Part shown: positions 1 to 9,444 of the stretch, in pieces
Layout: each line of letters begins with the position of its first letter
Numbering within the stretch: position 1 is the first letter of the stretch
IMG/VR virus record: IMGVR_UViG_2648501797_000003
Coordinates: 1 to 9,444 of that record
Direction: 5' to 3' (one strand)
Origin: a virus
Taxonomy: Duplodnaviria > Heunggongvirae > Uroviricota > Caudoviricetes
Length of the DNA: 9,444 nt
The notes under the pieces: model-generated
Told to the model about the DNA's origin: nothing
Database searches by the model: none
Seen by the model: the letters and a program-made list of their open reading frames with translations, nothing else
Program-made: the position numbers and the translations under genes

Positions 1-783
1 CTAAATCATCGCAATGCCGTAATGCTGCCTGATGCGAAATGGTCGCCGGAAACTTAAAACAGAAGCGGAAGTCATCTGTGGTCTGCTCACGCCAGCGCAG
101 GACAACCTCGGGTTCTCAACCGCGCCGATAACCTGTTTCTCTTCTGCGCTTAACGCCACCCAGAATTCCTGATACTTAACAGTTCCAAGGCGTGCGGCAG
201 ACTCGCCTTTTGCGATCAGTTCCGGGCGGCGATCATCCGATTCATGCCCTACATGAACCTCTGTCGCACTCCCTTCAATGACACGTTCGGCTTCGTCCTG
301 ATCGAAGATGCCAGCAAACCCAAATGCGAGACGCGCACACTGGATCAGCGTCTTGTGACGAAGCATACGGGTAGGGTGGGACTGCCATGGCTGAGTGTTG
401 CGTTTGCACTCTCCCATGTACTCAGTAACGATGGTCGGGTGTGTGCGGTCTTTCCGGTATATCTTGCAGGTACACGCGCCTTCTTCCTTGTCGTAGGCAA
501 ACTCCATTCCATCAAACTGAGGATGTTCGTTGATGATTCGAGCCCAGCCGTCAACGCCGACTACAGGAACAATTCCACCTTTATCCGGGAATGCATAAAT
601 CTCTTTTGTCCACGGGTTCAGTCCGTACTGGTTGGCGACGATCAGCAGTGCCGTGAACTGCTCATCAGTGACATTCCCACCCTTAAATGCTGTATTTTTC
701 AGAGTGTTCATCAGGTCAGTTCCGGCATCCATGCCGAGGCGGGAGGCAAGCTTCCCGGCCATTGTAGAAAGTGCTGTGCTCAT
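1..783 (-). CDS. bet: Bet / Red-beta family single-strand annealing recombinase (260 aa)
   Basis: Translation from ATG at 783-781 (MSTALSTMAGKLASRLGMD...LLIVANQYGLNPWTKEIYAFPDK...VPVVGVDGW..RIINE..QFDGM...CTC.IYRKDR.HP...TE.M.EC.....PWQSHP.RMLRHK..IQCARLAFGFAGI.D.DEAER) is near-collinear with lambda Bet as I recall it. SD GAGGGG lies 6 nt upstream of this ATG. Stop TAG is at 3-1. The ORF-track start at 834 adds 17 residues with no homology and overlaps the upstream gene. Confidence 0.9.
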   Translation of the reverse strand: MSTALSTMAGKLASRLGMDAGTDLMNTLKNTAFKGGNVTDEQFTALLIVANQYGLNPWTKEIYAFPDKGGIVPVVGVDGWARIINEHPQFDGMEFAYDKEEGACTCKIYRKDRTHPTIVTEYMGECKRNTQPWQSHPTRMLRHKTLIQCARLAFGFAGIFDQDEAERVIEGSATEVHVGHESDDRRPELIAKGESAARLGTVKYQEFWVALSAEEKQVIGAVENPRLSCAGVSRPQMTSASVLSFRRPFRIRQHYGIAMI

Positions 784-799
784 AGAATTCCCCTCAAAG

Positions 800-1084
800 T
801 TAAAACGGGCAGCCGGTGCGGTGGTCCCAGTCATATTCCGCCTGGGCGTAAGCTACTGCCGAGATGAGATCGTTATATGCCTCGCCAGCTGCATCGCTGC
901 GGAGGCCTTCGTATGGGCTTTTGTCCATCGGCACAGAGAAGCGGAACAGGCCTGACGGCTCTTTCGGCAGGGCGTCGATAATTTCCTGCGCCCGATCGTC
1001 AATCCACTTTTGCTTCTCTTCGGTTAGCGACTGTTCAGCCCATTTCCTTTCTTCGATAGCGTCGTATGCGCGGTAGGCGTTCAT
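800..1084 (-). CDS. gam: Gam-like host-nuclease (RecBCD) inhibitor, 94 aa from ATG 1084 (GTG at 1090 also possible)
   Basis: N-terminus MNAYRAYDAIEERKWAEQ resembles lambda GamS MNAYYIQDRLEAQSWARHY; similar length (~95 aa), charged helical character, and position immediately upstream of bet as in lambda. Start sits 7 nt after the stop of the upstream gene with an SD-like GAGGUG spanning that stop. Homology is from memory. Confidence 0.6.
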   Translation of the reverse strand: MNAYRAYDAIEERKWAEQSLTEEKQKWIDDRAQEIIDALPKEPSGLFRFSVPMDKSPYEGLRSDAAGEAYNDLISAVAYAQAEYDWDHRTGCPF

Positions 1085-1091
1085 AAGCACC

Positions 1092-2063
1092 TCAGTAACT
1101 GATACCGGTATGGGGAATGCGGCCGTCTTTAACCGCTGTAAGCACCTCGATAGCCTGATCCCGAGTAAGGCTGGTATTGGCCAGAAGAGCTTTGACGATT
1201 TCAGTGCCTACAGCCTTGCGGTGCTTAACGTCGGCTTCGCGGCGAGCCTGCTCATCGGCTTTACGTTTCTCCTCAGCCAGGCGGGCCTGTTCGCGTTGCT
1301 CTGCCTCGCGGCGGATGCGATCGGCTTCTTCCTGAGCTTTGCGGCGCTCCGCTTCGATAGCGGCCTGCTTGTCAGCCTCAGCTTTCTTCTCGGCTGCAAT
1401 GCGATCTCGCTCTGCCTGCTCAGCTTGTGCTTTCAACACAGCTTCGCGATGCGCCGCTTCTTCACGTTCACGCGGTGCGCGCTGCTCAACTTCTCGGGCT
1501 GCTGCGGCGGCTGCCATTCGCTTAATTTCTTCTTCATGGGCAATGCGCTGGCGCTCAGCCTCAGCTGCTTTATCTGCCTGCTCTCGGTCGAAAGCGTCAT
1601 TCATCAGCATGGCCATTTCGTGGTCAGACTCAATCCGAGCTGCCAGCTGCCGATCGAACTCTTCATTCATGGCCAGTGCTTCGACGTGAAGGGCGTTCAT
1701 GGCTTCTTCGGCCTTAATGCGTTCCTGCTCCGCCTCCCATTCGGTCAACGGGCGACGCACTTCATCTTTCAGTGCATCGAGACGCTCACGGACAACGCGG
1801 CGGCTTTCATCAATCTGCTTTGGCAGCGCCTTCAGCTCAGCGACCAGGGCTTTACCTGCGTTGTCGATGTAGGTTTTAGAGCGCGCGACCTTGTGAGCCA
1901 TGGATGCGATAGCATCGCGGCCTTTTTTGGTGGTCACGTCCGGCACCAGACTGCGAGCCTCTTTTTCGATCGCTTCGATAAGCGGATCGAGTTGGTCGTT
2001 ATTGGTGAAAACCGCCATCGCGTTCTTTTTCTCGATGACGACTAAATCCATTATTTCGCTCAT
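1092..2063 (-). CDS. Hypothetical coiled-coil protein, 323 aa; structured N-terminal ~110 aa, then long Ala/Glu/Arg/Lys-rich low-complexity helical region
   Basis: Long ORF from ATG 2063-2061 with SD AGGGGA about 5 nt upstream; stop TGA at 1094-1092 directly abuts the gam-like start. Central region is repetitive (AEAERQRIA..., AAAAAARE..., KAQAEQAERDRIAAEKKAEADKQAAIEAERRKAQEEADRIRREAEQ). The antisense frames are open only because of this GC-rich repetitive coding. Family not recognised. Confidence 0.75.
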   Translation of the reverse strand: MSEIMDLVVIEKKNAMAVFTNNDQLDPLIEAIEKEARSLVPDVTTKKGRDAIASMAHKVARSKTYIDNAGKALVAELKALPKQIDESRRVVRERLDALKDEVRRPLTEWEAEQERIKAEEAMNALHVEALAMNEEFDRQLAARIESDHEMAMLMNDAFDREQADKAAEAERQRIAHEEEIKRMAAAAAAREVEQRAPREREEAAHREAVLKAQAEQAERDRIAAEKKAEADKQAAIEAERRKAQEEADRIRREAEQREQARLAEEKRKADEQARREADVKHRKAVGTEIVKALLANTSLTRDQAIEVLTAVKDGRIPHTGISY

Positions 2064-2312
2064 GGTTTCCCCTGAAATTTGGTTGTAAGAATCCCGGCAC
2101 CGTATTGGCTGCCTGATAGCTCAGTTAAATTCGTGCGCTGATATCCGGGTTTATATTGCCTGGGAGTCATTAATCAATCTGGCGTGGAGTGCGATTCGTG
2201 GCTAAATCCCCCGCCGAACGCAAAGCCGCGCAGGAGGTAAAGATCTGTTTGGCTGGAAGTGAGGGCGTGGTAATGTGTTTACCTATTCTTCATTTGCTTA
2301 GGTGGCGTGAAA
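2064..2312. promoter_or_regulatory. Divergent intergenic control region between the leftward recombination operon and the rightward small-ORF operon
   Basis: 249 bp non-coding between divergent gene starts (2063 minus, 2313 plus). Candidate leftward sigma70 promoter: -35 TTGATT (revcomp of 2172-2177), 16-nt spacer, -10 TATAAA (revcomp of 2150-2155). Short repeated motifs TTGSCTG (2105, 2156, 2249) and GGCGTG (2181, 2265, 2303). Promoter calls are by eye only. Confidence 0.35.
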
Positions 2313-2510
2313 ATGCTGTATACAGTGACGTTCAATGAGACAGAGCGGAAGGAAGATATTGAACTTAGCGCGGATGTCAGGGCGGGTGATTTGCTGTCAT
2401 TAACGCTCGATGGCGTGAAAGATGACTACACGGTGATGACAGTAGGCGGTCCTATCATTGGCAATACCTGTGTCCCATCAATAATCCGGGTAAAAAAAGC
2501 TCAGAAATAA
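2313..2510 (+). CDS. Hypothetical small acidic protein (65 aa from ATG 2313; ORF track starts at GTG 2307)
   Basis: ORF with SD AGGTGG (2300-2305) 7 nt upstream of ATG 2313; first gene of the rightward operon. No helix-turn-helix evident, so not obviously Cro-like. Confidence 0.5.
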   Translation: MLYTVTFNETERKEDIELSADVRAGDLLSLTLDGVKDDYTVMTVGGPIIGNTCVPSIIRVKKAQK

Positions 2511-2519
2511 TAATGTATA

Positions 2520-2546
2520 ATCCCCTCCACAGCAGAGGGGATTTTT
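2520..2546 (+). terminator. GC-rich hairpin with short U-tract (terminator-like) that sequesters the SD of the next gene
   Basis: 8-bp perfect stem ATCCCCTC / GAGGGGAT (2520-2527 with 2535-2542), 7-nt loop CACAGCA, then TTTT immediately followed by ATG 2547. The 3' arm contains the GAGGGG Shine-Dalgarno of the 2547 ORF. Confidence 0.45.
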
Positions 2547-2729
2547 ATGACAAACAAAAAAATGACACCTGCCGAAAAGCTCAAAGCTTCGCGGAAGCGG
2601 TATAAAAAAATCTGGCTTCAACTGGATATCGCTAACGCCAAGCGATTTGGCGAGAAAGAAGTGCTTTCCGTTGACACCTACAGATCGCCCTATGAAACGC
2701 GCAAGAAAAGAGGAAGGACAGCAGATTGA
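2547..2729 (+). CDS. Hypothetical small basic protein (60 aa), possibly nucleic-acid binding
   Basis: [42 protein letters not shown]...; Lys/Arg-rich; a beta-strand-then-helix pattern ([14 protein letters not shown]) is compatible with a ribbon-helix-helix fold, but this is a guess. Confidence 0.5.
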
Positions 2730-2989
2730 CAACATCATCCTGGAACATAGCAGCCAAATCGAAAGACGAGCAGGACAAAGTCAACGTTGACCTCGCCGCG
2801 TCCGGCGTCGCTTACAAAGAACGCCTGAACATGCCGGTTGTCGCCGAAGTGGTGGCCAGACAACAGCCTGAACACCTGCGGGACTACTTCATGGAGCGCG
2901 TCCGCTACTACCGCGAGCAGAGCATCCAGCTTCCCCGCGCATCCGATCCGCGCTATCTGGAAATGGCTGAGCAGAACGCCAAGAAATAG
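2726..2989 (+). CDS. Hypothetical protein (87 aa) with putative TTG start overlapping the upstream stop (TTGA)
   Basis: ORF in track; strong SD AGGAAGG (2711-2717) 8 nt upstream of TTG 2726; the first in-frame ATG (2831) has no SD. Confidence 0.45.
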
Positions 2990-3095
2990 CGATTTCCTCG
3001 CCTATGCTCATTTTGCTTTTATCCCCGGGAGGGGCGATAATTACTTAGTCAGTCTGGACAACTGACAACTTTACCCCGGCGCCAAGTGGGGACAC

Positions 3096-3563
3096 ATGGC
3101 GCAAACACTGCAATTTGAGAAAAGTTATCAAAACGTACTGATTCCCGCAGAGCCGGGAACCAGCGAATACCTGCAACTTATCCCCGTAGGGCAACTGCTT
3201 TGCGGTGAGTTCCGCAAGCCCAGGAATTACGCATTCCACAAGAAGTTCTTCAAACTTCTGACTCTCGGGTATCACTACTGGACGCCTTCCGGTGGTCTCA
3301 TTGAGCCCGCGGAGCGTACCCTCATATCCGGTTTTATCGACTTTCTCTCATCCGACCTCGATCAGCGCGCTGCACTCCAGAACGCCGCGGAGATGTATCT
3401 CTCCTCGGTCGGTATATCCCGTTCCCGCGATATGGCGCTGCTGAAACACTTCGAATCCTTCCGCGAGTGGGCAACCATTCAGGCTGGCTTTTATGACGAA
3501 TACCAGATGCCTGACGGCAGCCGTCGTCGTGTCGCAAAGTCGATCTCCTTTCTGGCTCGATGA
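3096..3563 (+). CDS. Hypothetical protein (155 aa), nin-region-like position
   Basis: ORF with ATG 3096 preceded by GTGGGGA. Sequence feels like a conserved enterobacterial prophage protein of unknown function (possibly a DUF-type family), but I cannot name it reliably. Confidence 0.6.
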   Translation: MAQTLQFEKSYQNVLIPAEPGTSEYLQLIPVGQLLCGEFRKPRNYAFHKKFFKLLTLGYHYWTPSGGLIEPAERTLISGFIDFLSSDLDQRAALQNAAEMYLSSVGISRSRDMALLKHFESFREWATIQAGFYDEYQMPDGSRRRVAKSISFLAR

Positions 3564-3650
3564 CCAGCAGGTTGACTACTACAGCGTGAAGAGAATGCCT
3601 GTCGTCAAAGGTGGGCGGCTTGAGCTAACCATTACCGAAATGGAGTCCGC

Positions 3651-3791
3651 ATGAGCCGTGACGTTATCGAACGCATCCGCGACCGCTGGCAAAAGCTTCG
3701 CCTCCTGCGTAGCCGCGGCACCGTGCTGGTCGACTACAAAATATTACGCAATTTCGTCCGTATCTATAAGCGCCTGGGAGAAGCAGCATGA
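3651..3791 (+). CDS. Hypothetical small Arg-rich protein (46 aa), below the ORF-track length cutoff
   Basis: ATG 3651 with SD GGAG (3642-3645) 5 nt upstream; translation MSRDVIERIRDRWQKLRLLRSRGTVLVDYKILRNFVRIYKRLGEAA; its stop TGA (3789-3791) overlaps ATG 3788 of the next gene (ATGA coupling). Confidence 0.35.
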   Translation: MSRDVIERIRDRWQKLRLLRSRGTVLVDYKILRNFVRIYKRLGEAA

Positions 3792-4477
3792 CAGCTCAAT
3801 ACTTGGAATTTGTTCGCCAGCAGCTGATAGTGGCCACCGCCGATCTGAGTGGTGCGACGAAAGGGCAACTGGTAGCTCTTGCAGAGAACGCGCAATTTAC
3901 CGCTACGGCGCGCAGCCGTGGCCGGAAGAAGGTGTATAGCGAGGTGAAGCAAAAAATGGTTAACCCGGATGGACCGCCGATGAGCGGCAGCCAGTCCCGC
4001 GCTAAGGGTTCCTCAATCGCTCTCGTTCTGCCCGTTGAATACTCGACAGCCAGCTGGCGTCGCGCCCTCCTGTCGCTGGAAGACCACCAGAAATCCTGGT
4101 TGCTGTGGAACTACAGCGACAATATCCGCTGGGAGCACCAGGAGACGATAACCCGCTGGGCATGGGAGCAATTCAGCGACAAGCTGGCCGGTGTGCGCAT
4201 TGCAAAGAAAACAGTCGATCGCCTCCGTCAACTTATCTGGCTGGCCGCACAGGACGTCAAAGCCGAGCTGGCAGGACGGGAGACGTATGAATACCAGTCG
4301 CTGGCGGAGCTGGTTGGTGTAGCAAAGTCCACATGGACAGAAACCTACCTCCCTCATTGGCTGGCGCTGCGCAGCAGTTTTGTGAAGCTTGATAGCGACG
4401 CTCTCATGGCGGTAACGCGATCACGTTCACAACAAAAGGCGTCAAATTTAGATGTAAGTCTTGCAAAACCGAACTGA
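3788..4477 (+). CDS. Hypothetical protein (229 aa); candidate late-gene regulator (Q-like by position only)
   Basis: ORF with SD GGGAG 7 nt upstream. It is the last early gene, immediately upstream of a promoter-terminator-tRNA arrangement like lambdoid Q-pR'-tR'. It has no cysteines, so it is not a lambda-Q-type zinc-finger protein. The functional call is inference. Confidence 0.55.
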   Translation: MTAQYLEFVRQQLIVATADLSGATKGQLVALAENAQFTATARSRGRKKVYSEVKQKMVNPDGPPMSGSQSRAKGSSIALVLPVEYSTASWRRALLSLEDHQKSWLLWNYSDNIRWEHQETITRWAWEQFSDKLAGVRIAKKTVDRLRQLIWLAAQDVKAELAGRETYEYQSLAELVGVAKSTWTETYLPHWLALRSSFVKLDSDALMAVTRSRSQQKASNLDVSLAKPN

Positions 4478-4489
4478 AAGGCATATATT
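4461..4489 (+). promoter_or_regulatory. Candidate sigma70 promoter (pR'-like late promoter)
   Basis: -35 TTGCAA (4461-4466), 17-nt spacer, -10 TATATT (4484-4489), overlapping the stop codon of the 229-aa gene; predicted start near 4496, about 50 nt upstream of the terminator hairpin. Confidence 0.35.
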
Positions 4490-4544
4490 TCATGTAAATC
4501 TGATATCGTCGCCATAGCTTCGATTGTCGACACATAAAGAATTC

Positions 4545-4578
4545 AAGCCCGAGGTTAACGCCTTGGGCTTTTTCATTT
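4545..4578 (+). terminator. Intrinsic terminator (tR'-like)
   Basis: 10-bp stem AAGCCCGAGG / CCTTGGGCTT (one G-U pair), 6-nt loop TTAACG, followed by TTTCATTT. Confidence 0.6.
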
Positions 4579-4580
4579 CA

Positions 4581-4655
4581 GGGTCAGAAGCACAGCGGTT
4601 GTGCGTTCGGCTGTTAACCGAATGGTAGAAGGTTCGAATCCTTCCTGTCCCGCCA
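4581..4655 (+). tRNA. tRNA-Asn (anticodon GUU)-like gene, 75 nt including encoded CCA
   Basis: Hand-folded cloverleaf: acceptor 4581-4587 with 4645-4651 (6 bp plus one T-T mismatch), D-stem GCAC/GTGC, anticodon stem TTCGG/CCGAA with loop CTGTTAA (anticodon GTT at 4613-4615), 5-nt variable loop, T-stem GAAGG/CCTTC with canonical T-loop TTCGAAT, discriminator G, CCA. Non-canonical A at position 8. Confidence 0.6.
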
Positions 4656-4661
4656 AATAAT

Positions 4662-4732
4662 GGCCTGACCTGATGACGGGCTCATAATCCAATCCATCAG
4701 GGGCGCTGCTGCAACAGCGTCACAGGCCGCCA
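4662..4732 (+). other. Degenerate tRNA-like remnant (possible decayed tRNA with CAU-type anticodon loop motif)
   Basis: GGCCTGA (4662-4668) pairs with ACAGGCC (4722-4728) and is followed by G-CCA. Inside are a 7-bp hairpin (4669-4675 with 4695-4701) whose loop contains CTCATAA, and a 5-bp hairpin CGCTG/CAGCG (4704-4719). No D-arm and no canonical T-loop. Confidence 0.25.
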
Positions 4733-4789
4733 GACCAAGCCTGGGTATTTTCGGTCATCACCGACATTGCTATTACCCTCATGCTTATT

Positions 4790-4818
4790 GCCTGCCTAAC
4801 CGCAGGCTTTTTTATTTT
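4790..4818 (+). terminator. Intrinsic terminator
   Basis: 6-bp stem GCCTGC / GCAGGC, 6-nt loop, followed by TTTTTTATTTT. Confidence 0.6.
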
Positions 4819-4920
4819 CAGGGTCGCGGGAATCACCCTCGACGCTTTGTTGGTAAATCAGCCCGACGGCCCTGACCTTCTCACACACAGCTTCCCGATC
4901 TTTCATCGGAGGCGGTAACT

Positions 4921-5340
4921 ATGGCTAAGCGTATGCAAGACAAAGAGAGCATTGCCGGGATGTCCTGGCTGGTTCTGCTGATCATTGCTGGTTGGGGCGG
5001 CCTTGTCCGATTCCTGATGGATGTAAAGCAGGGCAAAGCAAAATGGAGCTGGATAAATGCTTTTGCGCAGATTGTGGTTTCGGCTTTTACCGGGGTTATT
5101 GGTGGGCTCATCAGCATTGAAGGTGGCCTGAGTATTTACATGATACTGGCCACTGCCGGTGACCAGGTTAACAGCGAGCTATGGTGGGCGATTCAGAACG
5201 GTTATATGACGGTTAAAGCCGCAGGGGTTCGTGTCCGTGAAATAGAGACCGTCAGTGATGGTTATCAGTTTTTTGGCTTCGATATCGAAAATGACTATAT
5301 CGCTGGCTTCGACCGCGGGTCATGGGGAGAGAGATTTTAA
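4921..5340 (+). CDS. Holin-like small membrane protein (139 aa) with dual-start motif
   Basis: SD GGAGG (4908-4912) 8 nt upstream of ATG 4921. N-terminus M-A-K-R-M (Met1 and Met5 separated by Lys-Arg); hydrophobic helices around residues 11-33 and 43-79; charged C-terminal region. First gene after the late promoter/tRNA region, where lambdoid holins sit. Confidence 0.6.
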   Translation: MAKRMQDKESIAGMSWLVLLIIAGWGGLVRFLMDVKQGKAKWSWINAFAQIVVSAFTGVIGGLISIEGGLSIYMILATAGDQVNSELWWAIQNGYMTVKAAGVRVREIETVSDGYQFFGFDIENDYIAGFDRGSWGERF

Positions 5341-6221
5341 TGGCGACTAACGATTTTAAACCCTTCGCTACTGGTAGCGGGGCAAACGTATTATCACAAG
5401 CTGATTATGACGCACTGTCGGCCAGAACAACTGGCTTTTTAAGTGGCAAAGCGTCTTCGGCCCAGGTCAACAAAGCTTTAAGGCAGGCATCAACTATTGC
5501 GGCGGTTGTGGCGCAGTTTATTTCTGATAACAGCGGCGATGACACCCTTGATAACGGTAATTTACCTACCTTACTGGCTAGTCTCGAAAGCGCCCTCCTC
5601 AAGTCCTCCCCTGGGCGGTTACAGAATATCGTTAGCTTTACCGCAAATGGGACCTACACCCCATCGCCAGGAACCAAACATGTAAAAGTTATTGTTACTG
5701 GCGGTGGTGGCGGTGGTGGTGGTTGTCAGGGAACTTCAGGATCTGAATCAGTTTCAGGTGGCGGCGGCGGTGCTGGTGGTACGGCCATTGGTTATTTTGC
5801 TGTAACTGAATCCAGCTATGCAGTCACTGTAGGTGCTGGTGGTTCTGCTGGCGTTGGTGCTGTCCAGGGTGGAACAGGCGGAACCTCAATCATTAACGGC
5901 ATTAGCGGATTGGGCGGAGATGGTGGTCAGAAATCAGGGATCACTACGCTGGCTGGTGGGAAAGGCGGTATTTCTATTGGTGGCTCGGTTAACCTTCCCG
6001 GAGGTTACGGCACTGATGGGCAAAATGGCTCCCTGATTATCCCCGGCAATGGCGGCTCGTCATATTGGGGCGGCGGTGGTCGTGGGGGCGCACGCGGGGG
6101 CGTGGCAGGGGATTGTTATGGTGCCGGTGGTGGTGGCGCATATGATGCTGCCATGTCTGGCAACTCCTACAATGGCGGACAGGGGAAAGCAGGGATTGTA
6201 TATATTGAGGAATATTCTTAA
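5340..6221 (+). CDS. Glycine-rich protein (293 aa from ATG 5340), tail-fibre/adhesin-like
   Basis: ATG 5340 overlaps the upstream stop (TAATG) with GGGGAGAGAG upstream; the ORF-track start at 5322 lies inside the upstream gene. N-terminal ~110 aa ordinary composition (MATNDFKPFATGSGANVLSQADYDAL...), then polyglycine tracts (G8, G5, GGxGG) separated by short variable segments. Family not identified. Confidence 0.7.
   Translation: MATNDFKPFATGSGANVLSQADYDALSARTTGFLSGKASSAQVNKALRQASTIAAVVAQFISDNSGDDTLDNGNLPTLLASLESALLKSSPGRLQNIVSFTANGTYTPSPGTKHVKVIVTGGGGGGGGCQGTSGSESVSGGGGGAGGTAIGYFAVTESSYAVTVGAGGSAGVGAVQGGTGGTSIINGISGLGGDGGQKSGITTLAGGKGGISIGGSVNLPGGYGTDGQNGSLIIPGNGGSSYWGGGGRGGARGGVAGDCYGAGGGGAYDAAMSGNSYNGGQGKAGIVYIEEYS
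5700..5723 (+). repeat. In-frame trinucleotide simple-sequence repeat (GGY)8 encoding Gly8
   Basis: GGC GGT GGT GGC GGT GGT GGT GGT read directly from the sequence, within the Gly-rich CDS. Confidence 0.8.
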
Positions 6222-6391
6222 TGGTAAGCAAGTATGCAGTCCTGAAAGAATGCGTGGTAGAAAACATTATTGTTGCTGATGATAATTACTCTCCTGATGA
6301 TTTCGAAGTCGTAAAATATAGCGACGAAACATTTTGCCAGCCAGGCATGTTGTACAATAAAGAGGATGGTTTATTTTATGATGATAAATAA
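6221..6391 (+). CDS. Hypothetical small protein (56 aa), translationally coupled to the Gly-rich gene
   Basis: ATG 6221 overlaps stop TAA 6219-6221 (TAATG); translation MVSKYAVLKECVVENIIVADDNYSPDDFEVVKYSDETFCQPGMLYNKEDGLFYDDK. Below the ORF-track cutoff. Could be a short chaperone or a fragment of a tail-fibre assembly protein; unproven. Confidence 0.35.
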   Translation: MVSKYAVLKECVVENIIVADDNYSPDDFEVVKYSDETFCQPGMLYNKEDGLFYDDK

Positions 6392-6438
6392 TCATCAAGA
6401 ATAAATAACATTATCTACATATCTACACATTACCAATC

Positions 6439-6463
6439 AACCGGCTTATGCCGGTTTTTTATT
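6439..6463 (+). terminator. Strong intrinsic terminator directly abutting the start of the 694-aa gene
   Basis: 7-bp stem AACCGGC / GCCGGTT, 4-nt loop TTAT, followed by TTTTTTATT; ATG of the next gene at 6473. Confidence 0.7.
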
Positions 6464-6472
6464 GGGGCGACC

Positions 6473-8557
6473 ATGAGTGAATACGATACCGGCAATCCTG
6501 TGCCGTCTGCATCAATACCTGATGCATGGGATAATATGCAGTCTATTGACAGGTTCGCTAATAGTAGTGATGAAACTATTACCACGCGTACAGGTAAGCA
6601 GTTAGACACTCTGCATGGCATCAATGTAAAGTCTGATAACCAACTTAATGAACAACAAGATACCTTTGAATTATCTCAATCCGAAAGGGAATCCTCTTTC
6701 GAAGAAAAATCAAATGAATTTGAATCGCGCTTCTCCTCTCAGTTATCGGCGCAGGAATCAACATTTTCAGAATCTCAATCTGATAAAGAAAACCGCTTTC
6801 AGCAGTTCCTGAATACTTCAGGATACGTGTTCCTTGGCGATTATCAGGACGGCCCATTCCAGTTTAGTGCCCGTAACCAGTACATCCGTTACGGCAATGA
6901 GTATTACCGCCTGAATGCTGCTACTGACGTCGGCTTTACGACCACCGGAACCGATGCGACCAGCTTTGCGAACGACGTTACTCACTTCGTTCTGATGGAT
7001 GGTGATACGCTTCGCCAAGACCTGGGTTCAGGCGAAGGAGCAATGAAGGTTTACCGGAACGCCTCACCTCTGGCCAGAATCATTCGCTCCTCGATTTTTG
7101 AATACCTTACTGAAGCTGATCAGCAGGCGTTGCTCACAATTCCTGGCGTTAATGTTATCGCTGACTACGCGTTAAAAAAAGCTATAGCTGATGGAGTGAT
7201 GGTACTGGATATTCCGTGGAATGTCGGTGCGTTAAATTTCGGGCTTGACCCCGCAATGCTTCCATTAGGTTTTCAATTTATAGGGTGGGGTTGCCGACGC
7301 CCATATACAATTGATGACGATAACAGTTTTCTGAATTGCGGAGTCGTCATCCGCGTAGCTGCTGGTGCAAGTTTTCCATTTTATTCAACAGGCAGGCATG
7401 TATTCCGGGATATTGTTTTTGATGGCCGAGATAAAACAACGTACCTTTTTTATTCGCCAAATACTGCAACCCAGTTCAACGGCACCCGACTTGAGGGGTG
7501 TGGATTTTATCGGTTTGCGATCGGGATTGGCTGGGCTTCAGGAGGAACAGCCAGGTACATCGGAACAATGAAAGCATATTTCTGCTCAATATCCGGAAAC
7601 GGGGATGGAGTCAGGAATTTAATAGACTCCATGATGTTTGGTTGCACAATCAATGCTAATGATCGAGGAGTGGCCCTTACCGGTGGGGCAAACAATAACT
7701 TTTTTGGAGGATGCCGGAACGAATGGAACACCGGCGATAACTGGTATGCGTACCAGTCGGTGGAGAACCAGATTTTCGGCGAACTGTGCGACAGGGCCGG
7801 AAGGGGAGGTGTGGTCGCCGGGGCGAAATCCTCATGGATTTTAAACGGCGTTAACGTCCGGCGCAGTGGTGCTAATCAACCCGTGGGTAATGACTATTCC
7901 GCAAACTTTATTATTATTGATGACGGTAAAATTGAACTCTCAGGGGTAAGAACTGGTGTCGGTGCGAATGACAGCGGTGACGGAGGGACAATCTCGCCAT
8001 CCTACAACGTATCAGCTCTTGGCTCTGGCGGGGGGACCTTGCAGGTTTCCGGAAGTGACATGACTGGTTTTGTTACTTCAGCAATTAACCAGAAGGCGAC
8101 CACGTTAAATAAGTCGATAACCGGCAACCTTGGTATGGACGACGATGTAAATATTGGTATGACCCAGGTTGTTAAAGGCAGGCGAATTATTGGTTCACAG
8201 TCATCAGGTACGTTAGCAGGCTCTGCGGGCGCAACGTTATCGCTGACCAAGACCAACATATTCCAGAATTATTTCGATACATATATTACCCGTTCAATCC
8301 TAATTGAATGTCGAATTGGTAGCCAGTCATTTGGTGACGATATTAAAATTCCCGTCAGATTCAGAAGGGAGAATCTTTATTATCTGGATATCCTGACCTC
8401 GGGAATTGTTGCCAGCTCTGCACGCATTGGGCTTTCAGGGACTGGCGTAACGGTATCATTGTCCATTAACAGCTCAACCGGTCTGGTTACTGTTCAGTTG
8501 ACAAATGTTGATGGTCTGGAAAGAACCGTTAATGTATCAATGTTGCCCTCAATGTAG
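6473..8557 (+). CDS. Tail-fibre / tailspike-like protein (694 aa); probable receptor-binding protein with beta-helix-like body
   Basis: Long ORF. N-terminal acidic Ser/Glu/Phe repeats with roughly 11-residue spacing of Phe (TFELSQSERESSFEEKSNEFESRFSSQLSAQESTFSESQSDKENRF), typical of fibre coiled-coils; central and C-terminal Gly/Asn/Ser/Thr-rich stretches resembling beta-helix tailspike proteins. No specific family confirmed. Confidence 0.7.
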   Translation: MSEYDTGNPVPSASIPDAWDNMQSIDRFANSSDETITTRTGKQLDTLHGINVKSDNQLNEQQDTFELSQSERESSFEEKSNEFESRFSSQLSAQESTFSESQSDKENRFQQFLNTSGYVFLGDYQDGPFQFSARNQYIRYGNEYYRLNAATDVGFTTTGTDATSFANDVTHFVLMDGDTLRQDLGSGEGAMKVYRNASPLARIIRSSIFEYLTEADQQALLTIPGVNVIADYALKKAIADGVMVLDIPWNVGALNFGLDPAMLPLGFQFIGWGCRRPYTIDDDNSFLNCGVVIRVAAGASFPFYSTGRHVFRDIVFDGRDKTTYLFYSPNTATQFNGTRLEGCGFYRFAIGIGWASGGTARYIGTMKAYFCSISGNGDGVRNLIDSMMFGCTINANDRGVALTGGANNNFFGGCRNEWNTGDNWYAYQSVENQIFGELCDRAGRGGVVAGAKSSWILNGVNVRRSGANQPVGNDYSANFIIIDDGKIELSGVRTGVGANDSGDGGTISPSYNVSALGSGGGTLQVSGSDMTGFVTSAINQKATTLNKSITGNLGMDDDVNIGMTQVVKGRRIIGSQSSGTLAGSAGATLSLTKTNIFQNYFDTYITRSILIECRIGSQSFGDDIKIPVRFRRENLYYLDILTSGIVASSARIGLSGTGVTVSLSINSSTGLVTVQLTNVDGLERTVNVSMLPSM

Positions 8558-8565
8558 GAGTGAAA

Positions 8566-8745
8566 ATGGAAGACGAAACAGAACTGACCGAACCGCCATT
8601 TGAAACCTGGTTCAGAGACGTGGTTGAACTGGTTAAAAATGGCGGACATTCAATGGATATTGTTGCCTATAAGGGGGAATGGGTTGATTATTTTTCGGAA
8701 GGATTAACACCAGAAGATGCGTTTATAAAAAGAATGGCTCTTTAA
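8566..8745 (+). CDS. Hypothetical small acidic protein (59 aa from ATG 8566)
   Basis: SD AGGAG (8556-8560) overlaps the stop of the 694-aa gene, 5 nt upstream of ATG 8566; very acidic (MEDETELTEPPFETWFRDVVELV...). Confidence 0.5.
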   Translation: MEDETELTEPPFETWFRDVVELVKNGGHSMDIVAYKGEWVDYFSEGLTPEDAFIKRMAL

Positions 8746-8858
8746 ATAACCGACCGAAAATAAATGTCAGGGAGTAACGTATTGATAATTTTCGACAAAA
8801 CGGCAGAGCATAGTGAAAACCGCCTGTGGATGATGGCCAACATGGGGAGGATTCTGTA

Positions 8859-9176
8859 ATGGGCTTTCCATCACCCGCGACGGATTACACGGAACAGCGA
8901 TTAACGGTTAACTCGATCTGCAATGTCGGTCCAAATACGCGCCTCTTCGAGCAATCTGGCGGTTACGTTGTGCTGGATGTCTCCCTGAAACCAAAGCAGG
9001 CCAGTCAGGTTCTGATCCAGCACGGCGGCGGGACGGAGCTTGCCACGCTGAGAGGAAGGTCGCTGATTACCGAAGATGGTGAAGCGATCGAGGGCGAGGC
9101 CCTGGACGATGTTACTGTCATCGGTGTAGTGACGTTTACTATCTGCGATGTGCGCCAGGACAATGCGGTTGTTTAG
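8859..9176 (+). CDS. UmuD'-like protein lacking the N-terminal pro-peptide (HumD-like; 105 aa)
   Basis: SD GGAGG (8846-8850) 8 nt upstream of ATG 8859. N-terminus MGFPSPATDYTEQRLTVNSIC matches the UmuD segment GFPSPAADYVEQRIDLNQLL that begins at the Cys24-Gly25 self-cleavage site (13 of 20 identical by my recall). C-terminal TVIGVVTFTI resembles UmuD DVFGVVIHVV. No GDSM serine motif seen and no umuC-like ORF downstream. Confidence 0.65.
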   Translation: MGFPSPATDYTEQRLTVNSICNVGPNTRLFEQSGGYVVLDVSLKPKQASQVLIQHGGGTELATLRGRSLITEDGEAIEGEALDDVTVIGVVTFTICDVRQDNAVV

Positions 9177-9339
9177 TTGCAGTCAATTGATGGAAGATTT
9201 CGCGTGGCAGGCGTCTTGGGGCATGGGTGGGGCATGAGAAATCAGTGAATTTCGCCAAACATTGCAAACAACGTATGTTGGATGCTATCTCCAGCCATTA
9301 AAAATGGCGCTCCTGGACGATATTTGTCGATTTTTAAAT

Positions 9340-9444
9340 TTACCGCGTCACGCAGTTAAAGTGGCGGGCATACTCTTCAAGGCTGGTGATCCCCAACCGC
9401 ACCCATTTAGGATGCGACCATTGCGGTAGACCGATGTAAATCAT
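9340..9444 (-). pseudogene. 5' fragment (34 codons plus stop) of a DUF72 / YecE-like host gene, apparently interrupted
   Basis: Minus-strand translation from ATG at 9444-9442: MIYIGLPQWSHPKWVRLGITSLEEYARHFNCV then TR-stop. This matches my recollection of the E. coli YecE (DUF72) N-terminus, which should continue EGNTT...; divergence begins near 9348. Identification from memory. Confidence 0.45.

Follow-up and report, generated by a model that had tools for sequence, protein, structure and literature searches.

Cryptic prophages of Escherichia coli K-12 (Rac, Qin, DLP12, e14 and CPS-53) have lost morphogenesis and mobility and keep recET (in Rac), the Q-type genes quuD and quuQ, and stfR/tfaR, stfQ/tfaQ and stfE/tfaE. 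In phage lambda, with its Q, pR' and 6S RNA, and in phage 933W, whose late region is arranged Q-pR'-tR'-tRNAs-stx-lysis, the terminators of the late operon are read through by Q-modified RNA polymerase alone. Phage phiP27 integrates in the chromosomal gene yecE. Here we examine a stretch of 9,444 nucleotides from a virus record (IMG/VR IMGVR_UViG_2648501797_000003, positions 1 to 9,444; hereafter the window, meaning this whole stretch) that carries an open reading frame (ORF) of 694 codons with an ATG start (6473-8557), directly behind an intrinsic terminator. A first-pass annotation of the DNA had read this gene as an orphan tailspike in a reduced element, expressed by terminator read-through and perhaps retained to alter the host range of a helper phage or to modify the cell surface. 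We find that the window is a fixed, non-mobile prophage relic of a known, ordinary kind. We put at roughly 0.8 the probability that its tailspike is the surviving receptor-binding protein of a recently deleted lambdoid yecE prophage, an ordinary relic.

The window spans a prophage remnant in yecE

The window matches E. coli B18271 at 100% identity; it opens with one half of yecE (114 bases) and closes with the other (96 bases). The insert between these halves measures 9.2 kb, so that the window spans the entire remnant, and the chromosomal flanks are yecN-cmoA-cmoB-torZ on one side and yecD-aspS-nudB-ruvC on the other. The left boundary (1-114, minus strand) is the 3' part of yecE and is 100% identical to bases 1501-1614 of the yecE locus of E. 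coli NBRC 3301 (L011). The right boundary (9349-9444, minus strand) consists of the attR core (CACGCAGTTAAAGTGGCGGGC, 9349-9369) and the 5' part of yecE, and is 100% identical to bases 1646-1741 of the same locus. The intervening 31 bp of yecE, bases 1615-1645, are not in the window, having been lost at the left junction together with the attL core. The gene is split and truncated in the relic strain, and the ORF of the phage gene bet now ends in yecE-derived sequence. The 21-bp attR core is also found in Klebsiella phage Mulock, where it stands beside an integrase that the annotators of Mulock describe as homologous to that of phage phiP27 (record annotation). A phage attachment site with a phage/host junction, here inside yecE, is a trait of cryptic prophages.

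None of the ORFs in the window corresponds to int, xis, cI/cro, O/P, endolysin, terminase, portal, capsid, sheath or tail-tube genes, the holin gene is truncated, and the chromosome begins just outside. Cryptic prophages characteristically lack what is needed to excise, replicate, lyse the host and assemble virions, and so does the relic. Because chromosomal genes lie directly beyond both ends, the label 'orphan' is correct; the left boundary, which the first-pass annotation had placed outside the window, proved to be chromosome, and there are no morphogenetic genes on either side. By the refuting condition of the first-pass annotation itself, a complete morphogenetic region at the left, this outcome is in its favour.

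An intact relative maps the deletions

A ~42.6-kb prophage occupies the same yecE site in E. coli strain ST361, with the order int-xis-...-exo-bet-gamL-323aa-cI-cro-cII-replication-nin-Q-tRNA-Asn-holin-endolysin-terminase-head-sheath/tube-baseplate-Gly-rich fibre-56aa-tailspike-59aa-S24. Aligned with this prophage at megablast stringency, the window resolves into seven collinear blocks of 99.4-100% identity, the exceptions being 97 bp at 97.9% and 251 bp at 90% in the nin region. Q, the glycine-rich fibre, the 56-residue ORF, the tailspike, the small ORF that follows it and the S24 peptidase are represented by the same RefSeq proteins in ST361 and B18271. Apart from its deletions, the relic is thus collinear with a complete prophage, a further trait of cryptic prophages, and the 99.4-100% identity of the shared DNA indicates that the decay is recent.

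The deletion joints lie at about 2137-2151, at 3549-3550 and at 5160. At its left end the relic is without the stretch of the ST361 prophage that holds attL, int, xis, exo and the 3' end of bet (int, xis and exo stand between yecE and bet in ST361, and none of them is in the window). This left joint is unmapped because the bet region of the relic (115-786) fails to align with ST361. The first internal deletion corresponds to ST361 prophage positions 12985 to 18744 and covers immunity and replication. The second (20240 to 21135) removed part of the nin region. The third (22746 to 44393, 21.6 kb) begins inside the holin gene and spares only the last 180 nt of the baseplate-wedge/DUF2612 gene, window 3549-5160 matching ST361 21135-22746 and window 5160-9444 matching ST361 44393-48677. 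Together the deletions took integration, immunity, replication, lysis and all head and tail-shaft genes.

At the joint at 5160 the third deletion left a fusion ORF of 139 residues (4921-5340, plus strand), made of the 5' 80 codons of the holin gene and the last 60 codons of the wedge gene. Pfam identifies holin at residues 18-80, PHROG identifies holin at residues 2-80 and a structural protein at residues 83-137, and PGAP labels both the holin half and the DUF2612 half as pseudogenes. The fusion is in frame and joins the N-terminal 80 residues of a LydA-type holin to the C-terminal 60 of the wedge protein.

An element of 9.2 kb that has a regulator and receptor-binding genes and is without capsid or terminase might also be taken for a phage satellite or phage-inducible island that brings its own tail fibre and obtains the rest from a helper. 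The structure of the locus speaks strongly against this. There is no integrase ORF, attL was deleted along with 31 bp of yecE, Pfam and PHROG scans of the main ORFs returned no primase, rep or small-terminase families, and there is no packaging signal. Moreover, all segments that align at megablast stringency follow the order of an ordinary prophage, and the joints interrupt genes (holin, DUF2612, DUF1367 and bet). With no integrase, att pair, replication or packaging functions, the relic is not a satellite, and we regard that explanation as extremely improbable.

The orphan gene encodes a modular tailspike

The assignment of the 694-residue product as tailspike-like is well supported. PHROG 6518 ("tail fiber protein") matches residues 141-692 (E 8.8e-129) and PHROG 17635 matches the N-terminus, while the structures 7XY1 and 7Y1C of gp42 from Klebsiella phage Kp9 ("type I tail fiber") match residues 207-606 (E 3.7e-46). 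A profile search returned the same single structure match (E 4.9e-43). Pfam gave no family for the tailspike, even at E <= 10. Kp9 gp42 is a homotrimeric tailspike, and its near-identical homologue tspA192 has been assigned capsule type KL111 (PMC12295037). Judged by these homologies, the 694-residue protein is a phage tailspike or tail-fibre receptor-binding protein, and it is very probably a capsule depolymerase. AlphaFold2 gave models with a pLDDT (predicted local distance difference test) of 31.5 from the single sequence and 36.7 from a 16-sequence alignment, values too low for the models to be used.

Three modules can be distinguished, all on the plus strand. The N-terminal anchor (residues 1-73; 6473-6690) is 95% identical at the nucleotide level to the phage record OZ035745, labelled Wanchaivirus PDP110P2, and 82% identical to Klebsiella phage P18-100. 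An anchor comprising residues 1-80 occurs in 26 viral contigs of IMG/VR with 77-100% amino acid identity; no relative was found when species-representative genomes were scanned with these 80 residues. The neck (residues 74-188; 6691-7036) is 81-91% identical in nucleotides to genes annotated as tail fibre or hypothetical in other prophages and phages of Klebsiella, and its first part is a long helix in the secondary structure of the low-confidence AlphaFold2 model. The receptor-binding, putative depolymerase module (residues 189-694; 7037-8557) carries the matches to PHROG 6518 and 7XY1 and is 91% identical in nucleotides to the tail fibre of the lytic Klebsiella phage VLCpiS10a. The similarity does not stop at the tailspike stop codon, since the whole of window 7037-8729 is 91% identical to the tail fibre and the next small ORF of that phage. 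Sequence comparison thus indicates that the C-terminal receptor-binding module is one that is exchanged with lytic Klebsiella phages.

The small ORF travels with this module. It encodes 61 residues (8560-8745, plus strand; 59 residues from 8566 according to PGAP), also follows the tail fibre in VLCpiS10a and VLCpiS11a, and has 73% amino acid identity to its lytic-phage counterpart (L001 8597-8785). This companion of ~60 residues may be a tailspike-specific helper.

The same gene is present in the ST361 prophage and in prophages of Klebsiella pneumoniae. In these intact prophages the tailspike follows baseplate J, the wedge, the glycine-rich fibre and the 56-residue ORF, and closes the cluster of baseplate and fibre genes. 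The relic descends from a temperate lambdoid phage whose baseplate module is of the contractile-tail type and whose kin are the ST361 yecE prophage, Mulock and OZ035745.

A conserved terminator precedes the tailspike

An intrinsic terminator (6439-6462, plus strand; -11.6 kcal/mol alone) lies directly 5' of the tailspike ribosome-binding site. It consists of the hairpin AACCGGC-TTAT-GCCGGTT (6439-6456) and a run of six T (6457-6462), and is followed by ATTGGGGCGACC and then by the ATG at 6473, about 9-10 nt on. A consensus scan classed this hairpin as terminator-like (7 pairs, 5 of them GC), and the 111-nt upstream region has a fold z-score of -4.2. The terminator is therefore present as the first-pass annotation had described it, and it is conserved: a hairpin and a run of six to eight T stand at constant distance before an invariant ATTGGGGCGACCATG in 26 of the 26 IMG/VR contigs that share the anchor. 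A hairpin and T-run also stand at this place in both phage records, OZ035745 and P18-100, in which conservation extends from the 3' end of the 56-residue ORF through the intergenic region to tailspike nt 218. That ORF (6221-6391, plus strand; PHROG 18617, E 6e-23) is itself conserved and precedes the tailspike in all relatives (ST361, the K. pneumoniae prophages and P18-100). Five contigs have an alternative stem that still pairs, with CTGACC/GGTCGG instead of ACCGGC/GCCGGT. In a register-true alignment all 40 cells for the five inner stem pairs are paired, and three of the five pairs are changed on both sides in one clade. This variant shows that what is kept at 6439-6462 is the structure, and the terminator is ancestral to the intact phages and not special to the orphan state.

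The same hairpin could be read primarily as an element of mRNA stability, processing or translational control. A predicted outer helix (6432-6436 with 6463-6467) encloses it and is kept in most variants; this CCAAT/ATTGG helix would pair beside the GGGG ribosome-binding site. A second, long AT-rich hairpin lies just upstream, and a hairpin overlapping a GAGGGG motif likewise precedes an ORF that starts at 2547. Set against these points, a GC-rich stem of 7 bp, a tetraloop and an invariant run of 6-8 T form the canonical signature of an intrinsic terminator, and the hairpin sits in an operon headed by a Q antiterminator, where terminators are expected. We consider a primary role in RNA stability or translation unlikely and treat 6439-6462 as a terminator.

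Two further motifs upstream of the terminator had been singled out as possible regulatory signals. Both exist where they had been placed. The palindrome TGATGA-TAAATAA-TCATCA (6379-6397), which really has 7-nt arms and a 5-nt loop, holds the TAA stop (6389-6391) of the 56-residue ORF, and ATCTACA-T-ATCTACA is a near-tandem repeat at 6413-6427 (plus strand). A regulatory role for them is not supported. Perfect 6-nt inverted repeats with 3-10-nt loops number 32 in the window against 17 +/- 5 in shuffles, and seven-mer near-tandem repeats number 8 against 2.7 +/- 1.9; we judge both motifs to be at chance level. In relatives of the P18-100 and L021 types both have degenerated or disappeared. Operator or recombinase sites at the palindrome and the repeat were accordingly rejected on grounds of chance frequency and lack of conservation.

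The AT-rich hairpin upstream of the terminator (6353-6408, plus strand) is an imperfect stem of ~23 bp that has the palindrome at its tip and spans the stop of the 56-residue ORF, being made of the last codons of that ORF and the non-coding bases that follow. Its folding energy is -15.8 kcal/mol against -5.6 +/- 2.4 in shuffles, and it is found in most relatives; one of its pairs is compensatory, and in the L021 clade many of them no longer form. A role in RNA stability or in processing of the RNase III type is conceivable. As a conserved long RNA hairpin around the palindrome we set it aside: the energy is in favour, covariation is weak, and one clade breaks it.

Late-operon wiring points to expression through Q

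The 229-residue candidate regulator of the first-pass annotation is a Q antiterminator (3788-4477, plus strand; Pfam PF06323, E 1.1e-82), the same protein as ST361 WP_025269999.1. A promoter scan found a late-promoter-like site, TTGCAA-17-TATATT (4461-4489, plus strand), that overlaps the Q stop codon. It is followed on the same strand by a short terminated leader RNA (4493-4571) whose terminator stem (4545-4570) has 11 bp and -17.7 kcal/mol. By analogy with lambda 6S RNA, it looks like a short leader transcribed from the late promoter. Rfam assigns it to isrJ at 57.1 bits (gathering score 37), a short terminator-ended small RNA first found in the Salmonella Gifsy-1 prophage (PMC4825925). A tRNA-Asn gene (GTT; 4581-4655, plus strand; ARAGORN, PGAP and Rfam tRNA at 61 bits) comes after the leader terminator, and a second intrinsic terminator (4790-4813, plus strand; GCCTGC-CTAACC-GCAGGC and T6, -11.2 kcal/mol) stands before the holin gene. 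The late region of the intact prophage has at least one more canonical plus-strand terminator (L012 428-447).

The combination of Q, a promoter-like site, a terminated leader and further terminators suggests that read-through by Q-modified polymerase would be the natural route of expression, as had been proposed. In the intact phage the tailspike would be the distal, last large gene of a late operon whose promoter lies directly after Q. Transcription would pass the leader terminator, the tRNA and the further terminators only as Q-modified RNA polymerase, which would then cross the conserved terminator 9 nt before the tailspike ATG. The latter would most plausibly serve to bar unmodified polymerase from the tailspike cassette.

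The relic appears to have kept this wiring, including Q, the late-promoter-like site, the terminated leader and tRNA-Asn. Further upstream, the joint at about 2137-2151 probably took pR and pL along with the immunity region. A terminator in the nin region (2520-2546, plus strand; ATCCCCTC-CACAGCA-GAGGGGAT-TTTT, -12.5 kcal/mol) abuts the ATG of a 60-residue ORF at 2547 and stands between Q and the best promoter-like site of the window (2458-2485). Given the presumed loss of pR and pL and a terminator upstream of Q, the relic tailspike is most likely silent unless a Q of matching specificity comes in trans. We searched B18271 for a second copy of the relic Q and found none. As a separate observation on the nin-region hairpin, its descending arm carries the only Shine-Dalgarno-like motif, and the terminator touches the start codon in the manner seen before the tailspike.

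A bolder reading is that the relic serves as a Q-inducible donor of receptor-binding proteins, with Q supplied by a superinfecting or co-resident kin phage. If that were true, late transcription of the relic would yield the glycine-rich fibre and the tailspike, which could join the baseplates of the incoming phage through the shared anchor, or alternatively be captured by recombination across the block of 56-residue ORF, terminator and anchor. Progeny would then gain an added or swapped capsule specificity across the boundary between E. coli and Klebsiella. We hold such a donor role to be unlikely.

The tailspike is disrupted in some members of the relic lineage

The reduced form is present in 4 of 5426 complete E. 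coli genomes, and the fibre/tailspike block at >=99% identity in 61. The exact fusion protein created by the third deletion is indexed in 369 blocks of a large assembly collection, which indicates that the relic marks a successful lineage. We read 24 contigs with the fusion ORF and found the tailspike disrupted twice independently, once by an IS5-family insertion at 8299-8303 with a 5-bp duplication (L005) and once by a frameshifting 5-bp insertion at tailspike nt 1056 (L006). Among the four distinct places shown from these 24 contigs, no disruption lay outside the tailspike; 20 further contigs were assigned to the intact L004 type through shared neighbouring genes. The two disruptions argue against strong purifying selection on the tailspike, without proving its absence, and since the tailspike is the largest gene of the relic, two hits there are compatible with neutral decay.

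These data bear on whether the tailspike has been domesticated, that is, retained because it benefits the cell or a helper phage, either loaded on superinfecting virions or acting as a free depolymerase. Several features would fit such a role. Q, the late promoter, both fibre genes and the small downstream ORF are intact, the anchor occurs in at least 26 viral contigs and so compatible baseplates exist, and the 369 blocks place the reduced form in hundreds of assemblies. However, with 99.4-100% identity to an intact prophage, persistence needs no selection, and the gene has been disrupted twice in the contigs read. Its early promoters are apparently deleted with a terminator still upstream of Q, no second copy of that Q was found in B18271, and the deletion of the lysis genes leaves no obvious exit for a free enzyme; no signal peptide or secretion partner came to light, though no search was aimed at them. 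PADLOC, run on ten ORFs of the relic, gave no defence-family hits, so that retention as a carrier of defence genes is unsupported, and mobility genes are absent from the relic. Nothing in the evidence gathered indicates domestication, and we consider it very unlikely. The suggested retention for helper-phage host range or surface modification is not supported, the element being a very recent deletion derivative of an intact prophage. The suggestion is weakened further by the absence of integrase, attL, replication, packaging and early promoters for Q, and by the knocked-out tailspike of sister isolates.

The host carries a Klebsiella-type capsule locus

A tailspike of Klebsiella type in E. coli fits the capsule locus of its host. 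Directly downstream of yegH, B18271 has galF-PAP2-wzi-wza-wzb-wzc-(glycosyltransferases)-wcaJ-gnd, followed by an O9-type rfb cluster (L041 45229-50000 and L042 229-33947; about 1.735-1.769 Mb on the chromosome). To judge from its genes, this cps locus is a Klebsiella-type group-1 capsule locus, and it presumably occupies the place of the colanic-acid cluster in K-12. The locus also includes a hypothetical ORF of 797 residues (L042 15052-17445). Its presence lends indirect support to a putative capsule-binding or depolymerase activity of the tailspike. Klebsiella-derived capsules have been described in E. coli O9 strains, together with tailspike exchange between the phages of these strains and those of Klebsiella (bioRxiv 10.64898/2026.05.19.726188; see also PMC6128206).

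Two K. pneumoniae prophages (L043 and L044; gene at 10001-12085) carry the tailspike at an identity that rounds to 100%, with complete baseplate/fibre clusters, at a site unrelated to yecE. Such near-identity implies a very recent transfer, of the cassette or of the phage, between the two genera.

Other features of the remnant

The remaining genes fit the same alignment. The truncated bet (115-834, minus strand; Pfam RecT, E 1.6e-27; PGAP 'phage recombination protein Bet') encodes a RecT-family recombinase whose 3' end runs into yecE. Next to it, gamL and an early-left gene for a coiled-coil protein of 323 residues (800-2063, minus strand) are severed from their promoter by the joint at ~2137-2151; this segment is 99.4% identical to ST361 11622-12985, and the following match jumps to 18744. 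A truncated DUF1367 gene of 155 codons (3096-3563) marks the small deletion with its joint at 3549-3550, which, by comparison with ST361, also took a short hypothetical gene, ybcO (DUF1364) and most of rusA. The glycine-rich tail-fibre protein (5322-6221, plus strand; start at 5340 according to PGAP) matches Pfam Gly_rich_2 and PHROG tail fibre families and is the same as ST361 WP_025270001.1. A UmuD-like S24 peptidase (8826-9176, plus strand; PHROG 3469, E 7.5e-46; PGAP 'S24/S26 family peptidase' in ST361) is the last phage gene before attR.

Discussion

We interpret the tailspike gene as what survives of the receptor-binding apparatus of a lambdoid yecE prophage after recent deletions. Several points weigh against this interpretation or soften parts of it. 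At megablast stringency, window 115-786 (bet) and 2234-2743 (nin) have no match to ST361, and 2744-2994 matches at only 90%; the ST361 prophage is therefore to be seen as a mosaic close to the ancestor of the relic but distinct from it. The compensatory variant of the terminator is confined to one clade and is thus possibly a single replacement event; it may reflect replacement of a cassette rather than stepwise covariation. Chance promoter activity might also express Q or the tailspike, the candidates being the site at 2458-2485, the best of the window, and a weak one at 6258-6286. The trimeric right-handed beta-helix fold and the depolymerase activity are predictions from homology, for the fold from that to 7XY1. 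Finally, the tailspike is still intact in most sampled members of the lineage, which is too young to tell neutrality from weak selection.

What is new here is an uncharacterised member of a known tailspike family and a further case in which capsule-linked phage traffic joins Klebsiella and E. coli, the carbapenem-resistant ST361 background included. A "hypothetical protein" in an odd context has become an annotated tailspike in a mapped relic, and the odd-looking terminator before it a normal, conserved part of the late operon of a phage family. The receptor-binding module and its companion ORF are common to a temperate phage of contractile-tail type and to lytic Klebsiella phages, and should be useful for the prediction of depolymerases and host range.

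Comparison with known systems

For the tailspike, the closest characterised relatives are Kp9 gp42 and tspA192 of phage KP192 (7XY1 and 7Y1C), homologous over ~400 central and C-terminal residues. Like the relic protein, the homotrimeric, capsule-specific Kp9 gp42 is modular, with an exchangeable N-terminal anchor. Its anchor is T7 gp17-like and belongs to a podovirus tail, whereas that of the relic tailspike is for a baseplate of contractile-tail type. The match is remote and at the level of sequence, and the KL111 specificity of tspA192 is not transferable to the relic tailspike. The lytic, siphovirus-type VLCpiS10a (ON602746) and VLCpiS11a have residues 189-694 and the small ORF in common with the relic, at 91% and 81% nucleotide identity, and differ in N-terminal anchor, virion type and lifestyle. 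Their fibre gene lies beside the lysis genes on the opposite strand and not behind the conserved terminator.

For the setting of the gene, the late control of lambda and Shiga toxin (Stx) phages shares with the relic the succession of Q, promoter, short terminated leader, tRNA gene(s) and a lysis/structural operon. The relic differs in that its Q belongs to PF06323, its leader matches isrJ, and its operon has collapsed to holin'::wedge', two fibre genes and small ORFs. The yecE-integrating phages with a phiP27-type integrase, such as Mulock, have the same 21-bp right att core and the same early-left gene order; compared with them the relic has lost integrase, excisionase and attL. As a whole, the relic is most like the cryptic prophages of E. 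coli K-12, which are likewise lambdoid, chromosomally fixed and riddled with deletions. It is far younger than these, sits in yecE and is rare (4 of 5426 complete genomes), and the fibre that it has kept is a Klebsiella-type capsule tailspike instead of a lambda-type side tail fibre.

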